Source: a virus (lineage: Duplodnaviria > Heunggongvirae > Uroviricota > Caudoviricetes). From it: a stretch of DNA of 4,419 nucleotides. A program made the position numbers and the translations under genes. Below the pieces are notes generated by a model. That model was not told where the DNA came from, searched no databases, and saw only the letters and a program-made list of their open reading frames with translations. Where the stretch lies: the IMG/VR virus record IMGVR_UViG_2571042636_000010. The stretch is one strand, 5' to 3'. Of the stretch, positions 1,148 to 4,419 are shown piece after piece (within the stretch, counting starts at the first letter, position 1; the number at the start of each line of letters is the position of its first letter).

Positions 1148-1498
1148 TTATAAGTCAGCCTGTTTAATAAAACTTTGCCCACGAAGCAGACGATCAACCG
1201 TGCGAAGCGCTTCGTATAATGTGAAATCCTGTCCGAACTGATTGTCTCCGCTGCTCAGCGCAAAAATGCGGTTTCCGGTAAACGGATTGCGCTGGCATTT
1301 GTGGACCACGATTCCGGCTTTCTCAATCAGCCAGGTGTGCTCGCCGATTTGTTTTACAGCGTGTCCGTCTGGTGTTGCGTGCGTTTCGCTCAGGCTGTAG
1401 CGAGAGCTGCTACGTGATGCACTGGTAGCGAAGCGGTTAGCGTGGCGTTCCGCCCCGTTGCGGAATCGCTGCTGTGAAGAATTACGTCGTTGCTTCAT
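1148..1498 (-). CDS. hypothetical protein with basic Ser/Arg/Gln-rich N-terminal region (116 aa; alternative starts give 136 or 160 aa)
   Basis: Track ORF 1148..1630 begins at a TTG (1630). In-frame ATGs are at 1558 and 1498. I chose 1498 (MKQRRNSSQQRFRNG...) because the longer forms overlap the divergent upstream region; the start is uncertain. The C-terminal half (HAVKQIGEHTWLIEKAGIVVHKCQRNPFTGNRIF...) looks like a folded domain. No family recognised. Confidence 0.45.
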   Translation of the reverse strand: MKQRRNSSQQRFRNGAERHANRFATSASRSSSRYSLSETHATPDGHAVKQIGEHTWLIEKAGIVVHKCQRNPFTGNRIFALSSGDNQFGQDFTLYEALRTVDRLLRGQSFIKQADL

Positions 1499-1640
1499 AC
1501 AAAAAATATCCTGCTGCTGTTGCGAATTTGTGCCGGGTTTTAGCCATGCCCGGCGCATGGTTTTGTGGTATTTTTCCACCGCCCGCAGTCTTGAAGGGGC
1601 TGTAAAGGGCGCGTGTTCAACTAACCACAAAGGAGTTGTT
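1499..1640. promoter_or_regulatory. putative divergent intergenic/control region between the leftward small-gene cluster and the rightward 155-aa gene
   Basis: A 142-bp gap if the starts at 1498 (-) and 1641 (+) are correct. Contains GC-rich dyad symmetry: GCCGGG (1532-1537) pairs with CCCGGC (1549-1554), and CCATG (1544-1548) pairs with CATGG (1556-1560). A TGgTATTTT extended -10-like motif sits at 1566-1574 on the + strand. No convincing -35 elements found by eye. Confidence 0.25.
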
Positions 1641-2108
1641 ATGGAATTAGATGCTTCTGTGTGTCTGCGAATTTTTGAAAAACACTACGAGCGAGTTGCT
1701 AAAACCTATCGTGAGGTGCTGGATAAAGAAACAGCCAACTCAGCATTTGTTGCTACTCGAGCATTGATTCTCCTTAAATTGGATTTGTTACTTGTCGAGT
1801 ATCGAAGAAATATTGATTCCAAGTGCGTAGTCCTCTTCGGGAAAAATGTGCTTTATCATTATCTTTTCACCCAAAAGGGCGTTTCATTGTCTGATGCCAA
1901 AAATATGTGTCTCCATGACATACTTATTGTTCTCTGGAATGATATTAATGCATATGTAATACCAGAGCATGTATCCGAGCGTATCCAGATTCTTTATAAG
2001 TACGAGCTCTCATCTCCAGTGCCTGATTTAAGTTATGAAGATGAAAGTCTGTTGCATTTTAAGGATTCTGCTTGGGATTTTTATCCTGCCGATACACGAC
2101 TGAATTAA
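1641..2108 (+). CDS. hypothetical protein, 155 aa, AT-rich accessory (moron-like) gene
   Basis: ATG at 1641 is preceded by AAAGGAG (1629-1635) with a 5-nt spacer, the strongest ribosome-binding site in the window. Frame is open to TAA at 2106-2108. My hand count over several 60-nt lines gives roughly 35-45% GC, against roughly 50-60% in the integrase and leftward genes. The track ORF 1458..2108 begins at a TTG and the extension overlaps the minus-strand gene, so the internal ATG is preferred. No family recognised. Confidence 0.6.
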   Translation: MELDASVCLRIFEKHYERVAKTYREVLDKETANSAFVATRALILLKLDLLLVEYRRNIDSKCVVLFGKNVLYHYLFTQKGVSLSDAKNMCLHDILIVLWNDINAYVIPEHVSERIQILYKYELSSPVPDLSYEDESLLHFKDSAWDFYPADTRLN

Positions 2109-2670
2109 GAAACTCATTGTTTCTATCTATTTCAGTCTGGTAGGCCTCTAACTCATGCCGTAATTGTTGTTGTCTTAGTGGTAACTTGTTGCGGCATTTC
2201 AATTCTGCTACAACGGTTTCCAAAAAACTTATCAGTTCTTCATCAGTGTATGAGCCAGCATAAATGTACGGTTTAGTGTTAGCGCATGTACAGTCTGCTG
2301 TTTCTTTAATGAGCATTGATTCGTCATCCATAATCTGTCGATAAAGTTCAAATGCTTCTTCGGCAGGAAACCTGAGCATGACGCCGCATACTGGTTCTAA
2401 AACCAATCCGAACGTTCCCTTTGCGTTATCCCGACAAAAATGTCCGTATTCATCGTCGGGATGCAGGGTGGCATCTTTCAAATCTTCGCCATTCTGAAGC
2501 TTTGATTTAAATGCCATCAGGTCAGCGAACGTTCTGTGTAATTCGTGGTAGTCAATGCTGATTTCAATCTGCGGTTTGCCCGGAAAAACCAGCAAAAGCT
2601 TCTGGTGTGGTTTTTCGTTTTTCAGGGTTTCCAGTCGTTCCAGTAGTGCTTTGTCTTCGTGGTTTGTCAT
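2059..2670 (-). CDS. hypothetical protein, 203 aa, translationally coupled to cox
   Basis: ATG at 2670-2668 lies 1 nt after the TGA stop of the Cox-like gene (2674-2672). The track ORF 2059..2796 starts at an upstream ATG inside cox in another frame, so I prefer the internal start (MTNHEDKALLERLETLKNEK...). The long open frame has a moderate GGGG ribosome-binding site. No catalytic or nucleotide-binding motif recognised. Confidence 0.6.
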   Translation of the reverse strand: MTNHEDKALLERLETLKNEKPHQKLLLVFPGKPQIEISIDYHELHRTFADLMAFKSKLQNGEDLKDATLHPDDEYGHFCRDNAKGTFGLVLEPVCGVMLRFPAEEAFELYRQIMDDESMLIKETADCTCANTKPYIYAGSYTDEELISFLETVVAELKCRNKLPLRQQQLRHELEAYQTEIDRNNEFLNSVVYRQDKNPKQNP

Positions 2671-2671
2671 T

Positions 2672-2953
2672 TCAAAGCCCCAGCCACAGCAACCATGCGT
2701 CTCGTTGTTCTTTCGGGCGTGCAAAGAATGCTTCGCGCATCGCTTTGTTGAACTCCGGGATGTAAACCCAGTTTTCAGCGCGTGAACGCAGTGCATTAGG
2801 GTTCTGCCATTTCACAATTGGAAGTTTGCCGTCAGAAATCATGTCGCTCACAGCAGATGCTGGTTTACCGATCATCTCGGCGAATTTGGGGCCGGGGACG
2901 GCATCAATTGGATAACCAATATTGATATATCGCTCTAGTTCCCTGTCTCTCAT
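2672..2953 (-). CDS. cox: Cox-like excisionase / early-promoter regulator (P2 Cox family)
   Basis: Translation ...FAEMIGKPASAVSDMISDGKLPIVKW...ENWVYIPEFN...ARPKEQRDAWLLWLGL matches my recollection of phage P2 Cox (FAKLIGK...GKLPV...WVYLP...RPKEIRDGWLMWLGL) in order and spacing. It is divergent from the repressor gene, as in P2. Start is either ATG 2953 or TTG 2959; GGAGA lies 5 nt before the TTG and 11 nt before the ATG. Confidence 0.7.
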   Translation of the reverse strand: MRDRELERYINIGYPIDAVPGPKFAEMIGKPASAVSDMISDGKLPIVKWQNPNALRSRAENWVYIPEFNKAMREAFFARPKEQRDAWLLWLGL

Positions 2954-3048
2954 GTGCAATAATTCTCCGTTTAGGGCTATTGGCGGCTTGTATCCGCTTA
3001 TAGCGGTGATGTGTATTGGTAGAAACTTCCACCCTTTAGGAGAATGTT
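2954..3048. promoter_or_regulatory. putative immunity switch region (divergent C / cox control, Pe and Pc-type promoters and operators)
   Basis: An ~90-bp gap between the divergent cox and C starts. The minus strand carries a TATAAG -10-like hexamer (2997-3002) about 40 nt upstream of the cox start. TATTGG occurs twice in direct orientation (2978-2983 and 3014-3019). A short dyad CCGC..GCGG sits at 2994-3006. Assignment rests on the P2/186 face-to-face promoter architecture; exact sites are not established. Confidence 0.35.
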
Positions 3049-3372
3049 ATGGTAGAGACTTCCACCCAGTCAAGAGGGATAGGGGAAAAAATCCGCATGA
3101 TTAGAGATGCTGAAGGTCTTAGCAGACAGCAATTCTTTGAATTGACGGGGATTCCTGCGGGGACGCAAAAGTATTATGAAACTGGACGGGTTGAAAAAAT
3201 AGGTAGTGATATTTTGCTAAAGATCACGCTTCATTCTCAATTTTCTAAATATGCCCTGTGGCTTATGACCGACAATATTGCGCCAGAATCAGGGCAGATT
3301 GCCCCGCCTCTCTCCCCTGATGGGCACGAAAATGCAGTAATGTCGCGCCGCTCCGTCCGCAAAACTGGTTAA
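3049..3372 (+). CDS. C: phage immunity repressor, P2 C-type (short helix-turn-helix repressor)
   Basis: ATG at 3049 with AGGAG (3036-3040) 8 nt upstream; TAA stop at 3370-3372. The 107-aa product contains LSRQQFFELTGIP (helix-turn-helix-like) and YALWLMTDNIAPESGQIAPPL, matching my recollection of P2 C (LSRQQLADLTGVP ... YTLWFMTNQIAPESGQIAPAL). Lies upstream of and co-directional with the integrase, as in P2. Confidence 0.75.
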   Translation: MVETSTQSRGIGEKIRMIRDAEGLSRQQFFELTGIPAGTQKYYETGRVEKIGSDILLKITLHSQFSKYALWLMTDNIAPESGQIAPPLSPDGHENAVMSRRSVRKTG

Positions 3373-3438: not shown

Positions 3439-4419
3439 ATGACGATTAAGAAGCTCGAAGGAGGGCAATATCAGGTGGATATTTACCCGCGTGGGCGTGA
3501 AGGCAAGCGCATACGCAGACGTTTCAAGAAAAAACAGGAAGCTATTCTGTTTGAGCGGTATGTGATGGCTAACGTCGAGAAAAAAGAATGGCTCGGCGCA
3601 AGCGTTGATCGCCGTACGCTTGGGGAGTTGCTGGAAATCTGGTGGCTGTTGCATGGTCAGACACTGGAGAACGGTGCAATCGAAAGACAACAACTGGAAA
3701 AGACAATCAGGGCGCTTGGTAATCCTGCCGTTAACCGGCTTGATAAGCGTGAAATTGCCAGGCATCGCGGTGAACGGCTTACAGATGGTATTAGCGCATC
3801 AACCATTAACCGCGATGTTTATCGTTTGTCCGGTATGTTTACCGCATTGAGTAAGCTTGGAGAATTTCGCGTTGAAAATCCCTGTCATGGTTTGCAGCCG
3901 TTACGGGAGGCACAGCCACCAATGACTTACCTTACAAAACAGGAAATCGCCCGATTGCTGGAATTTCTGGAGGGTGACAATCGCCGGGTGGCATTGCTGT
4001 GTCTCAGTACCGGGGCGCGGTGGAATGAGGGAAGCACGCTGCGGGCTGAGCAGGTCAATCATGGACGTGTGACCTTTCTGAAAACGAAGAACGGCAAAAA
4101 AAGGACGGTGCCGATTTCGGAAGTTCTGGAGCGGGAGATCAAAACCTGCGAGACGGGGCCGTTGTTCGATGTGAATTATGCTCAGTTCCGTGAGCAATTA
4201 CGGCGTGTAAAACCTGATTTACCACGGGGGCAGTCAACGCATGTGCTTCGCCACACGTTCGCCAGTTGGTTCATGATGAACGGAGGAAACATTATTGCGC
4301 TTCAGCAAATTATGGGTCATGCCAGCATTAAACAAACGATGGTTTATGCGCATCTTGCACCGGATTTTCTCCAGCACGCGATTACGTTAAATCCGCTTGG
4401 TGGAGGTCTGGGGATTTGA
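3439..4419 (+). CDS. int: site-specific tyrosine recombinase, P2/186-family phage integrase (complete, 326 aa)
   Basis: ATG at 3439 with GGAGG (3426-3430) 8 nt upstream; TGA stop at 4417-4419, the last bases of the window. The C-terminal catalytic region HVLRHTFASWFMMNGGNIIALQQIMGHASIKQTMVYAHL carries the tyrosine-recombinase R..H-x-x-R..Y signature, with LSTGARWNE upstream. The N-terminus MTIKKLEGGQYQVDIYPRGREGKRIRRRF resembles P2-type integrases. Confidence 0.9.
   Translation: MTIKKLEGGQYQVDIYPRGREGKRIRRRFKKKQEAILFERYVMANVEKKEWLGASVDRRTLGELLEIWWLLHGQTLENGAIERQQLEKTIRALGNPAVNRLDKREIARHRGERLTDGISASTINRDVYRLSGMFTALSKLGEFRVENPCHGLQPLREAQPPMTYLTKQEIARLLEFLEGDNRRVALLCLSTGARWNEGSTLRAEQVNHGRVTFLKTKNGKKRTVPISEVLEREIKTCETGPLFDVNYAQFREQLRRVKPDLPRGQSTHVLRHTFASWFMMNGGNIIALQQIMGHASIKQTMVYAHLAPDFLQHAITLNPLGGGLGI

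Follow-up and report, generated by a model that had tools for sequence, protein, structure and literature searches.

A convergent gene overlap inherited with a mobile two-gene cassette in the immunity region of a P2-like prophage

The convergent gene pair

A 4,419-nucleotide (nt) stretch of IMG/VR virus record IMGVR_UViG_2571042636_000010, hereafter the window, covers the early and immunity region of a P2-like prophage. In this window, a 155-amino-acid (aa) gene of the ECs1072 family and a 203-aa gene are convergent and share 50 nt at their 3' ends. This overlap is inherited with a mobile cassette and is no local accident. The cassette consists of a leader with a putative promoter and two genes, a member of the ECs1072 family that reads in the lysogenic direction and a gene for a small helical partner that reads in the lytic direction. 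These genes lie tail to tail with no intergenic space and no terminator; the partner frame continues beyond the stop codon of ECs1072 as far as the earliest stop present in that antisense frame, which gives overlaps of 32–89 nt. In the window, the 203-aa chimera arose when cassette exchange joined the partner domain, in frame, to ~120 codons from the 5' end of the resident post-cox gene. An inherited two-gene cassette with a lysogen-expressed ECs1072 protein, a lytic partner and antisense read-through is, overall, the explanation we consider probable.

The ECs1072-family open reading frame (ORF) runs from an ATG at 1641 to a TAA at 2106–2108, and the opposing ORF from an ATG at 2670 to a TAA at 2061–2059. 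The early operon runs from cox through the 203-aa gene (orf203) to a DUF4761 gene and onward to gpA, and the 155-aa ORF is the sole plus strand gene within this minus strand operon. The convergent overlap was proposed earlier in a sequence-only reading. It is real, and both genes are conserved and annotated alike by the PGAP annotation pipeline. In Escherichia coli E300010 (locus L001; loci are given L numbers), where the ECs1072/203-aa module is 97.5% identical, PGAP calls both genes with an identical 50-nt overlap. Overlaps of 50 nt are also found in L002 (E. coli CFIAFB20180511), L005, L008 and L013. Within the overlap, the plus strand encodes the last 15 ECs1072 residues and part of the 16th (K141), DSAWDFYPADTRLN followed by the stop codon, and the minus strand encodes the last 15 residues of the partner, NSVVYRQDKNPKQNP followed by the stop codon. 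Plus strand codon position 3 lies opposite minus strand position 2, and plus strand position 2 opposite minus strand position 3, so that neither gene keeps a free wobble position there.

Phase and length of the overlap

The convergent layout with an overlap of 2 mod 3 nt was found in the window, L001, L002, L005, L008, L013, L016, L018, L019, L020, L022 and prophage Sp4 of E. coli O157:H7 Sakai (L026). All intact cassettes examined therefore use one antisense phase, although the overlap length differs among lineages (Table 1). The partner ORF is also present, but not called, in L007, L015 and L017. L009 shows the same layout, assessed as layout only with its ORF left untranslated. Gene callers, both PGAP and that of the sequence collection, often miss the partner (L002, L007, L009, L015, L017 and L026), probably owing to its overlap with the ECs1072 gene.

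The length expected by chance was estimated by shuffling the ECs1072 codons and recording the distance to the first stop in the antisense frame of the partner. In the shuffled sequences, this stop was reached at a median of 23–38 nt. The probability of an overlap at least as long as that observed was 0.08–0.41 for the 32–89 nt overlaps, and 0.26–0.41 for the four 50-nt cassettes shuffled. The existence and the phase of the overlap thus exceed chance, whereas its 50-nt length does not. Because the lengths match those of chance stops, the conserved features are the phase and the absence of a gap or stop ahead of the ECs1072 gene, and not the 50-nt length.

The ECs1072-family protein

The 155-aa protein clearly belongs to a family that has a name but is uncharacterized. 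It matches NCBIfam NF033230 ('ECs1072 family phage-associated protein') with 111 bits against a cut-off of 70 (E 4.6e-32), and its residues 8–154 align to profile positions 3–141/142. The family core motifs RAL..KLD, LFGKN.L.HYLF and the C-terminal ..EW[DN].. are all present up to the C-terminus. Residues R40, A41, K46, L47, D48, L65, F66, G67, Y74, L75 and W145 are invariant in a 20-member alignment. Homologues with 33–48% identity were found in Enterobacter, Salmonella, Citrobacter, Serratia, Pectobacterium, Erwinia, Lonsdalea and Brenneria, and at these identities the C-terminal motif F-K/Q-D-S-x-W-D..AD.RLN is kept to the last residue. The AlphaFold2 model is all-alpha with a predicted local distance difference test (pLDDT) score of 89.3, and the last two C-terminal blocks score 93 and 85. 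The protein has no informative fold match. Searches of Pfam, PHROGs and PADLOC gave no functional hint, the only match being phrog_5286 (function not annotated; E 2.9e-5). In PADLOC-DB v2, the 155-aa protein gave Cas7f-type noise (E 0.011–0.017) and the 203-aa protein gave no match. A tblastn search of 50,697 phage records with the ECs1072 protein returned no match, and a profile search of genome contigs with the ECs1072 alignment returned 2 loci only; gene contexts were otherwise traced by exact-protein look-ups.

The 203-aa chimera and its partner domain

With 100% identity, the 203-aa protein matches the representative of a 34-sequence cluster. Its N-terminal ~120 aa share 77–86% identity with more than 25 other clusters, whose proteins of 121–173 aa cover 56–63% of the query. 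In L002, the DNA matching window positions 2059–2307 forms a stand-alone 91-aa ORF (3561–3836, minus strand), which is not called by PGAP, matches residues ~122–203 and has the same 50-nt overlap with the ECs1072 gene. By homology, the 203-aa protein is therefore a chimera of the post-cox N-terminus and a small helical partner. The ATG of the 203-aa gene lies 1 nt past the cox stop codon (2674–2672; TGA-A-ATG), and thus the gene belongs to the early operon. In L002, the ATG of the 91-aa ORF overlaps the cox stop codon (ATGA). Judging from these start codons, the partner is translationally linked to cox. An alternative start of the minus strand ORF at 2796 (ORF 2059–2796, 245 aa) was rejected, since the longer ORF would overlap cox out of frame and conserved sequence is seen only from the MTN start at 2670 onward. 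Database entries P0002, P0010 and P0014 have been called with similar N-terminal extensions.

The partner family has the core motif PxIxxGxL[ST]DxELIxFLE...R...PExLR...NExIxSVV and, beyond it, a short tail. P13, D22, L25, R39 and R50 are invariant across 15 partner sequences. The partner occurs as stand-alone proteins of 71–96 aa, as a 153-aa protein and as the 203-aa fusion, its N-terminal context being interchangeable. A phmmer search of 1.84 billion representative proteins with the partner domain retrieved 7 short relatives (E 6.7e-7 to 3.5e-4), indicating that the family is small. AlphaFold2 predicts the 82-aa partner domain as one long helix (residues 22–70, ending ..NSV) with a tail of pLDDT 45–59. 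The tail past SxV comprises 2 to ~30 residues where ECs1072 is intact. Tails of 80 or more residues occur in P0053 and P0055, and in the context of P0053, the one examined, ECs1072 is truncated. A comparison of homologue C-termini, as the sequence-only reading had suggested, showed that the ECs1072 motif persists to the last residue, so that ECs1072 homologues do not end before the overlap, and that the partner tail varies and always enters the ECs1072 gene. Because the ECs1072 C-terminus is conserved and confidently folded, and the partner tail is variable and predicted to be disordered, ECs1072 provides the constrained frame of the overlap and the last ~12 residues of the partner are a variable, disordered tail.

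Two further partner variants were observed. The 153-aa protein of L008 (4407–4868, minus strand) and a 158-aa protein of phage SEN5 (L025, 2812–3288, minus strand), otherwise unrelated, share the N-terminal MVMKHEGR. This octapeptide suggests that the cassette has a second boundary a few codons into the 5' end of the gene beside the C repressor. In L021 (485–1058), a 152-aa partner variant with a long extra C-terminal extension lies beside a 63-aa convergent ORF. ECs1072 has apparently been deleted or truncated there, and this locus could reveal how the partner frame behaves once freed from the overlap.

Cassette boundaries and insertion sites

Blastn breakpoints place the cassette boundaries at 1634/2332 in comparison with L003 and at 1635/2307 in comparison with L030. 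The G+C fraction is 0.365–0.41 inside the cassette and 0.445–0.565 in adjoining segments, and it rises from ~0.39 to 0.45 at the resident 5' part of the 203-aa gene (2308..2670). In the post-cox protein, the C-terminus changes in step with the opposite-strand cargo (window 2308–2670 compared with L003 3324–3731, L030 and entries P0002, P0009 and P0012). A 60-aa cargo accompanies a 135-aa post-cox form ending ..VIEVGNVPEKISGTGVK, a 78-aa cargo accompanies a 162–173-aa form ending ..KMNRRYFKKGKFLGFINQ, and the ECs1072 cargo accompanies the 203-aa form. This co-variation places a recombination breakpoint inside the gene, near codon 120.

The cassette is a small mobile two-gene unit present in P2-like prophages, 186-like prophages and one lambda-like prophage. 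In intact cassettes, each traced ECs1072 homologue faces a small convergent ORF with the partner core motif that overlaps its 3' end. Of at least five kinds of insertion site, the first is the post-cox slot (window, L001, L002 and L005). The second lies between cox and the C repressor (L007–L014, L020, L022/23 and L006), the third after cII in 186-like prophages (L015–L018), and the fourth after three small post-cox genes in Erwinia. The pair is adjacent and convergent in L019 as well. The fifth site is in the lambdoid prophage Sp4 of Sakai, the namesake of the family, between a cII-like gene and O. There, ECs_5703, the current tag at the old ECs1072 position, is faced by an unannotated ORF that carries the partner motif, and profile hidden Markov models of the two families match exactly those two adjacent ORFs among the 114 ORF pieces in the region. 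The Sp4 partner-like ORF (29117–29677, plus strand) stays open for 317 nt antisense through ECs_5703 (29361–29816, minus strand).

At all sites, ECs1072 is oriented as the repressor and integrase, and the partner as the lytic operon. The proposal that one gene of the pair points the same way as repressor and integrase and the other along with cox was thus borne out in five kinds of insertion site, and this persistence fits state-specific expression.

In L006 (Brenneria rubrifaciens), an IS21-family element with istA/istB-like ORFs (~3460–5540) lies just 3' of ECs1072 and cuts the partner ORF, and the ECs1072 C-terminus differs there (..EFTERWLS). The cox genes beside the cassette also differ, with 95 aa in the window (2672–2959) and 175 aa in L001 (5365–5892), despite the near-identical module. 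The differing cox types indicate that the window and the E. coli E300010 prophage carry different immunity modules around the same cassette.

Leader element and cargo slot

A leader of ~60 nt is kept upstream of the ECs1072 genes in E. coli, Enterobacter, Salmonella and Brenneria and is followed by a strong Shine-Dalgarno sequence, whose CCACAAGGA context is kept in every lineage aligned. All ECs1072 cassettes have this leader in common. In it, the palindromes GCCGGG..CCCGGC and CCATGC-CCGGC-GCATGG overlap each other and precede an extended -10-like TGGTATTTT at 1566–1574. The Brenneria palindrome carries a compensatory CCACGC/GCGTGG change. TGGTAWTTT follows the palindromes in the window, L003, L004, L006, L008, L013, L025 and L027–L055. 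Exact copies of a 29-nt leader core occur in 29 IMG/VR contigs, where they precede at least 8 unrelated plus strand ORFs. These cargo ORFs include ECs1072, two 60-aa types and ORFs of 78 aa, 155 aa ('MKFNL'), 68 aa, 159 aa and 109 aa. The convergent ORF, where identified, ends -21 to +9 nt from the stop codon of the cargo ORF. The occurrence of the leader core ahead of unrelated plus strand cargo identifies the slot as a cargo hotspot with a portable leader in the lysogenic direction, and the element itself looks like a portable, possibly regulated promoter or leader. Identity with the Pc/Pe switch of the phage was considered and rejected: the leader always precedes a plus strand cargo ORF with its own Shine-Dalgarno sequence, and in the window it lies ~1.4 kb from the cox–C intergenic region.

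Transcription across the pair and proposed model

No terminator-like site was found near 2059–2108, and no bidirectional intrinsic terminator separates the two genes. Since the early operon continues past the cassette, transcription from Pe would have to cross the whole 468-nt ECs1072 gene antisense. The 50-nt overlap, earlier taken as the unit of transcriptional or antisense interaction, is too narrow for that role, as the operon reads antisense through the entire ECs1072 gene. With no terminator between the genes, the antisense relationship probably spans ~470 nt or more rather than 50. In phage 186, a convergent promoter in the lysogenic direction, pE, causes no measurable interference with pR (PMC7708051), which indicates that any interference is likely to be one-sided; it would probably run from the strong Pe against ECs1072. 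Sakai ECs1072 is among the genes with significantly changed expression in uninduced cultures (PMC2241611), which hints weakly at its expression from the prophage.

Based on these features, ECs1072 would be made in the lysogen from its own promoter, as a prophage accessory (moron) function. Upon induction, transcription from Pe would yield the partner and would run on antisense through the whole of ECs1072 toward DUF4761 and gpA. Polymerase collision or antisense RNA could then lower ECs1072 expression, and the partner helix would probably bind or counteract ECs1072, so that the lytic growth of the phage itself would be spared. We infer from the gene arrangement that expression may be state-specific, with the partner as an antidote. 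The most economical model, a prophage accessory protein that a lytic-operon product, the partner, counters while the phage itself grows lytically, is tentative, and the odds are rather against it. In a broader reading, which we regard as somewhat more doubtful still, the pair would be an effector and its antidote: ECs1072 (e.g. for exclusion or abortive infection) would be expressed from the portable promoter, the lytic-only partner would neutralize it, the tail-to-tail layout without a terminator would wire the pair to the switch through convergent transcription, and the leader would be the mark of a wider, hitherto undescribed family of 'antisense-embedded' slots for cargo that P2-, 186- and lambda-like phages carry in their immunity regions.

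Several observations weigh against this interpretation of the cassette. A consensus promoter scan called no promoter at 1513–1575, the promoter having been read from the sequence, and in phage 186 the convergent pE has no measurable effect on pR. A weak minus strand promoter-like site within ECs1072 (1887–1858) could feed the downstream genes. The promoter, the read-through and the interference are putative throughout. The open Sakai frame of 317 nt has a codon-shuffle probability of 0.002 and is left unexplained by a model in which the partner ends at chance stops. The most conserved stretch of the cassette is the LFGKN.L.HYLF core (0.71), not the overlap. Third-position identity does peak in the last ten ECs1072 codons (0.60, compared with 0.30–0.48), and in the closer comparisons the same-codon fraction is 60–77% in the tail and 40–55% in the body. 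None of the latter differences is significant (Fisher p 0.06–0.75), and the extra synonymous constraint in the overlap is a mere trend; dual-coding selection is not claimed as proven.

Alternative explanations

The overlap itself could be a regulatory device, in which a duplex of ~50 nt between the mRNA 3' ends (an RNase III target) or polymerase collision makes expression of the two genes mutually exclusive, as for lambda oop and cII. The overlap and its phase are kept in all cassettes, and no terminator lies between the genes. Lambda carries oop between cII and O, and the Sakai Sp4 cassette sits in that place. The overlap is also a local peak of multi-lineage nucleotide identity (0.60–0.66, compared with 0.34–0.45 in the flanks), and in a blastn comparison of the window with the Enterobacter cassette, positions 2058–2119 are the only coding stretch that aligns in the promoter-cassette region 1499–2331, in addition to the promoter element. 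This conservation probably reflects two conserved protein ends (..ADTRLN and its stop, and ..FLNSVV) that share ~20 nt of the same DNA. The overlap length varies from 32 to 89 nt, as expected by chance, and without terminators the transcripts would overlap far beyond the coding sequences, so that the 50 nt are not special. An inverted repeat at 2096–2139 (plus strand; GACTGAA..GAAAC / GTTTC..TTCAGTC) spans the ECs1072 stop codon with a fold z of -2.85, but other lineages do not conserve this hairpin, which also lacks a U-tract, and Rfam has no family in the window at E ≤ 1. In phage 186, pE does not measurably interfere with pR. We consider a device centred on the overlap unlikely.

The pair could also be a toxin-antitoxin or addiction module that stabilizes the prophage, in which ECs1072 is the toxin and the helical partner its antitoxin; the overlap would then be a matter of compaction. 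Two small, tightly linked genes without assigned function that move among unrelated phage backbones would suit such a module, as would a partner consisting of a single long helix, a form expected of a binding or neutralizing peptide. The genes are convergent, however, and not co-transcribed, in contrast to the co-directional bicistronic operon with recognizable toxin and antitoxin domains that characterizes type II systems, and neither Pfam nor NCBIfam gave a toxin or antitoxin match, nor PADLOC any match. Moreover, the partner is located in, and coupled to, the lytic operon, and so would be repressed in the lysogen, when an antitoxin is needed. This explanation is accordingly rather improbable.

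The sequence-only reading had also allowed that the inserted gene truncated or extended its neighbour, and the overlap would then be a local by-product: insertion of the 155-aa gene removed the stop codon of the neighbour, and its frame ran on into foreign DNA. Part of this stood. The 3' end of the neighbour was indeed replaced at ~2307–2331, where the G+C content changes, and the 203-aa protein matches the common 135-aa protein over the first ~120 aa only. The replacement, however, is the partner of the cassette itself, which already overlapped ECs1072 by 50 nt in cassettes lacking the 135-aa gene (L002, and L008 and L013 with another N-terminus). The ~80 aa past the breakpoint are not random either, as they carry the conserved motif and have homologues in the 91-aa ORF of L002 and among the partners of at least 7 further lineages. 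The by-product reading is thus contradicted as an origin of the overlap and very improbable; it survives solely for the chimeric N-terminus. That one ORF is not real or has a misassigned end, as the missing partner annotations in L002 (PGAP), Sakai Sp4, L007, L009, L015 and L017 might suggest, is hardly credible and, on the sequence comparisons, already contradicted by the conservation of both families as proteins with family-specific motifs across genera, by the coupling of start codons to cox and by the alignment of ECs1072 up to NCBIfam profile position 141/142.

Genomic setting

The window has the early and immunity layout of P2-like phages (Peduoviridae), with the integrase and a C-type repressor on one strand and cox and the early genes divergent from them. 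Its conserved parts share 85–88% DNA identity with P88-like phages (Xuanwuvirus). Further minus strand genes in the window are a phrog_3800 gene and a DUF4754 gene. The coordinates of the main features are given in Table 1.

Table 1. Features of the window and overlap lengths in other loci (CDS, coding sequence; HTH, helix-turn-helix)
Feature	Position or length	Strand	Basis
DUF4761 gene, next early-operon gene past the cassette	1148..1498	-	PF15958, E 4.6e-69; start as annotated in L001
Conserved leader and putative promoter element	1513..1575	+	Upstream of ECs1072
Shine-Dalgarno AAGGAG, 5 nt ahead of the ECs1072-family ATG	1630..1635	+	Sequence
Exchangeable cassette, delimited against relatives with other cargo	1635..2331	.	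Blastn breakpoints, G+C content
155-aa ECs1072-family gene	1641..2108	+ (repressor/integrase strand, lysogenic direction)	NF033230
Tail-to-tail CDS overlap	2059..2108, 50 nt	both strands	ORF list and sequence
Cassette-derived 3' part of the 203-aa gene, partner domain (residues ~122–203)	2059..2307	-	Homology to stand-alone and other partners
5' part of the 203-aa gene, resident; encodes ~120 N-terminal aa as in the common 135-aa post-cox protein	2308..2670	-	Protein identity, DNA homology
cox, first gene of the early lytic operon	2672..2959	-	PF10743, E 8.4e-24
C-type HTH immunity repressor	3049..3372	+	Weak HTH_31, 21.5 bits against Pfam cut-off of 27; position and annotation in relatives
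Tyrosine integrase	3439..4419	+	PF24624, PF00589
Overlap in L008 and L013	50 nt		
Overlap in L019	53 nt		
Overlap in L020	59 nt		
Overlap in L016	80 nt		
Overlap in L018	89 nt		
Overlap in L022	32 nt		

Significance and comparison with known systems

An overlap of convergent genes is ordinary on its own, and the conserved module to which this one belongs varies a known theme, that of prophage morons or accessory cassettes. What appears to be an annotation oddity is a portable unit that keeps its orientation to the lysis–lysogeny switch in three phage groups and whose second gene is often overlooked by annotation pipelines. It also provides a clear case of cassette exchange with an intragenic breakpoint, in which the resident C-terminus co-varies with the cargo on the opposite strand. 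If the proposed roles were true, with an effector made in the lysogen, an antidote made in the lytic cycle and coupling by convergent transcription, the cassette would represent a new self-immunity layout among prophage accessory systems and would mark a cargo hotspot inside the P2-like immunity region. No account of the partner family, of the obligatory tail-to-tail pairing, of the fixed orientation to the switch or of the shared leader was found in the literature.

The arrangement resembles lambda oop against the 3' end of cII and P22 sieB/esc/sas, both of which have a transcript, made in the lysogenic direction, that runs antisense to an early lytic gene at its 3' end. The P22 prophage expresses an exclusion gene, and self-immunity is governed by antisense RNA. 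The antisense partners in lambda and P22 are short non-coding RNAs with defined terminators. In the window, by contrast, conserved proteins are encoded on both strands, and the searches revealed neither a terminator nor an RNA family.

The convergent promoter pairs pR–pL and pR–pE of phages 186 and P2 (PMC7708051, PMC5001618) likewise place a promoter in the lysogenic direction within, and facing, the early lytic operon. The pE promoter of 186 is activated by CII and serves repressor expression (PMC7708051, PMC5001618), whereas the putative promoter here would drive a cargo protein gene.

Accessory and defence hotspots of P2-like phages (Rousset et al., 2022, PMC9122126; NAR 2026, PMC13586616) share with this slot the exchangeable low-G+C cargo between conserved flanks. 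The main hotspots described are located at gpA–gpQ and in the tail region, whereas the slot described here lies in the immunity and early region. The slot further differs in its shared leader element, its convergent gene pairs and the lack of a PADLOC match, and a defence role is unproven. The integrase–primase interval, in which the cassette lies, has been reported as a minor defence hotspot of P2-like phages (2026 survey, PMC13586616).

NF033230 is a family without functional annotation ('hypoth_equivalog'). No description that we found includes the partner gene or the overlap, and ECs1072 itself is mentioned in a single paper, only in a microarray table (PMC2241611). The namesake of the family in Sakai Sp4 is only distantly related to the window protein, but it too lies antisense within an early lytic operon and faces an unannotated ORF with the partner motif.

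The proposed model can finally be compared with BstA/aba, a prophage defence with cognate self-immunity (PMC8585504). The aba element is a stretch of DNA inside bstA and not a convergent protein gene, and the two systems have no sequence or fold relation. The likeness would be conceptual: as in BstA/aba, a prophage effector would be neutralized only in the lytic cycle of its own phage.

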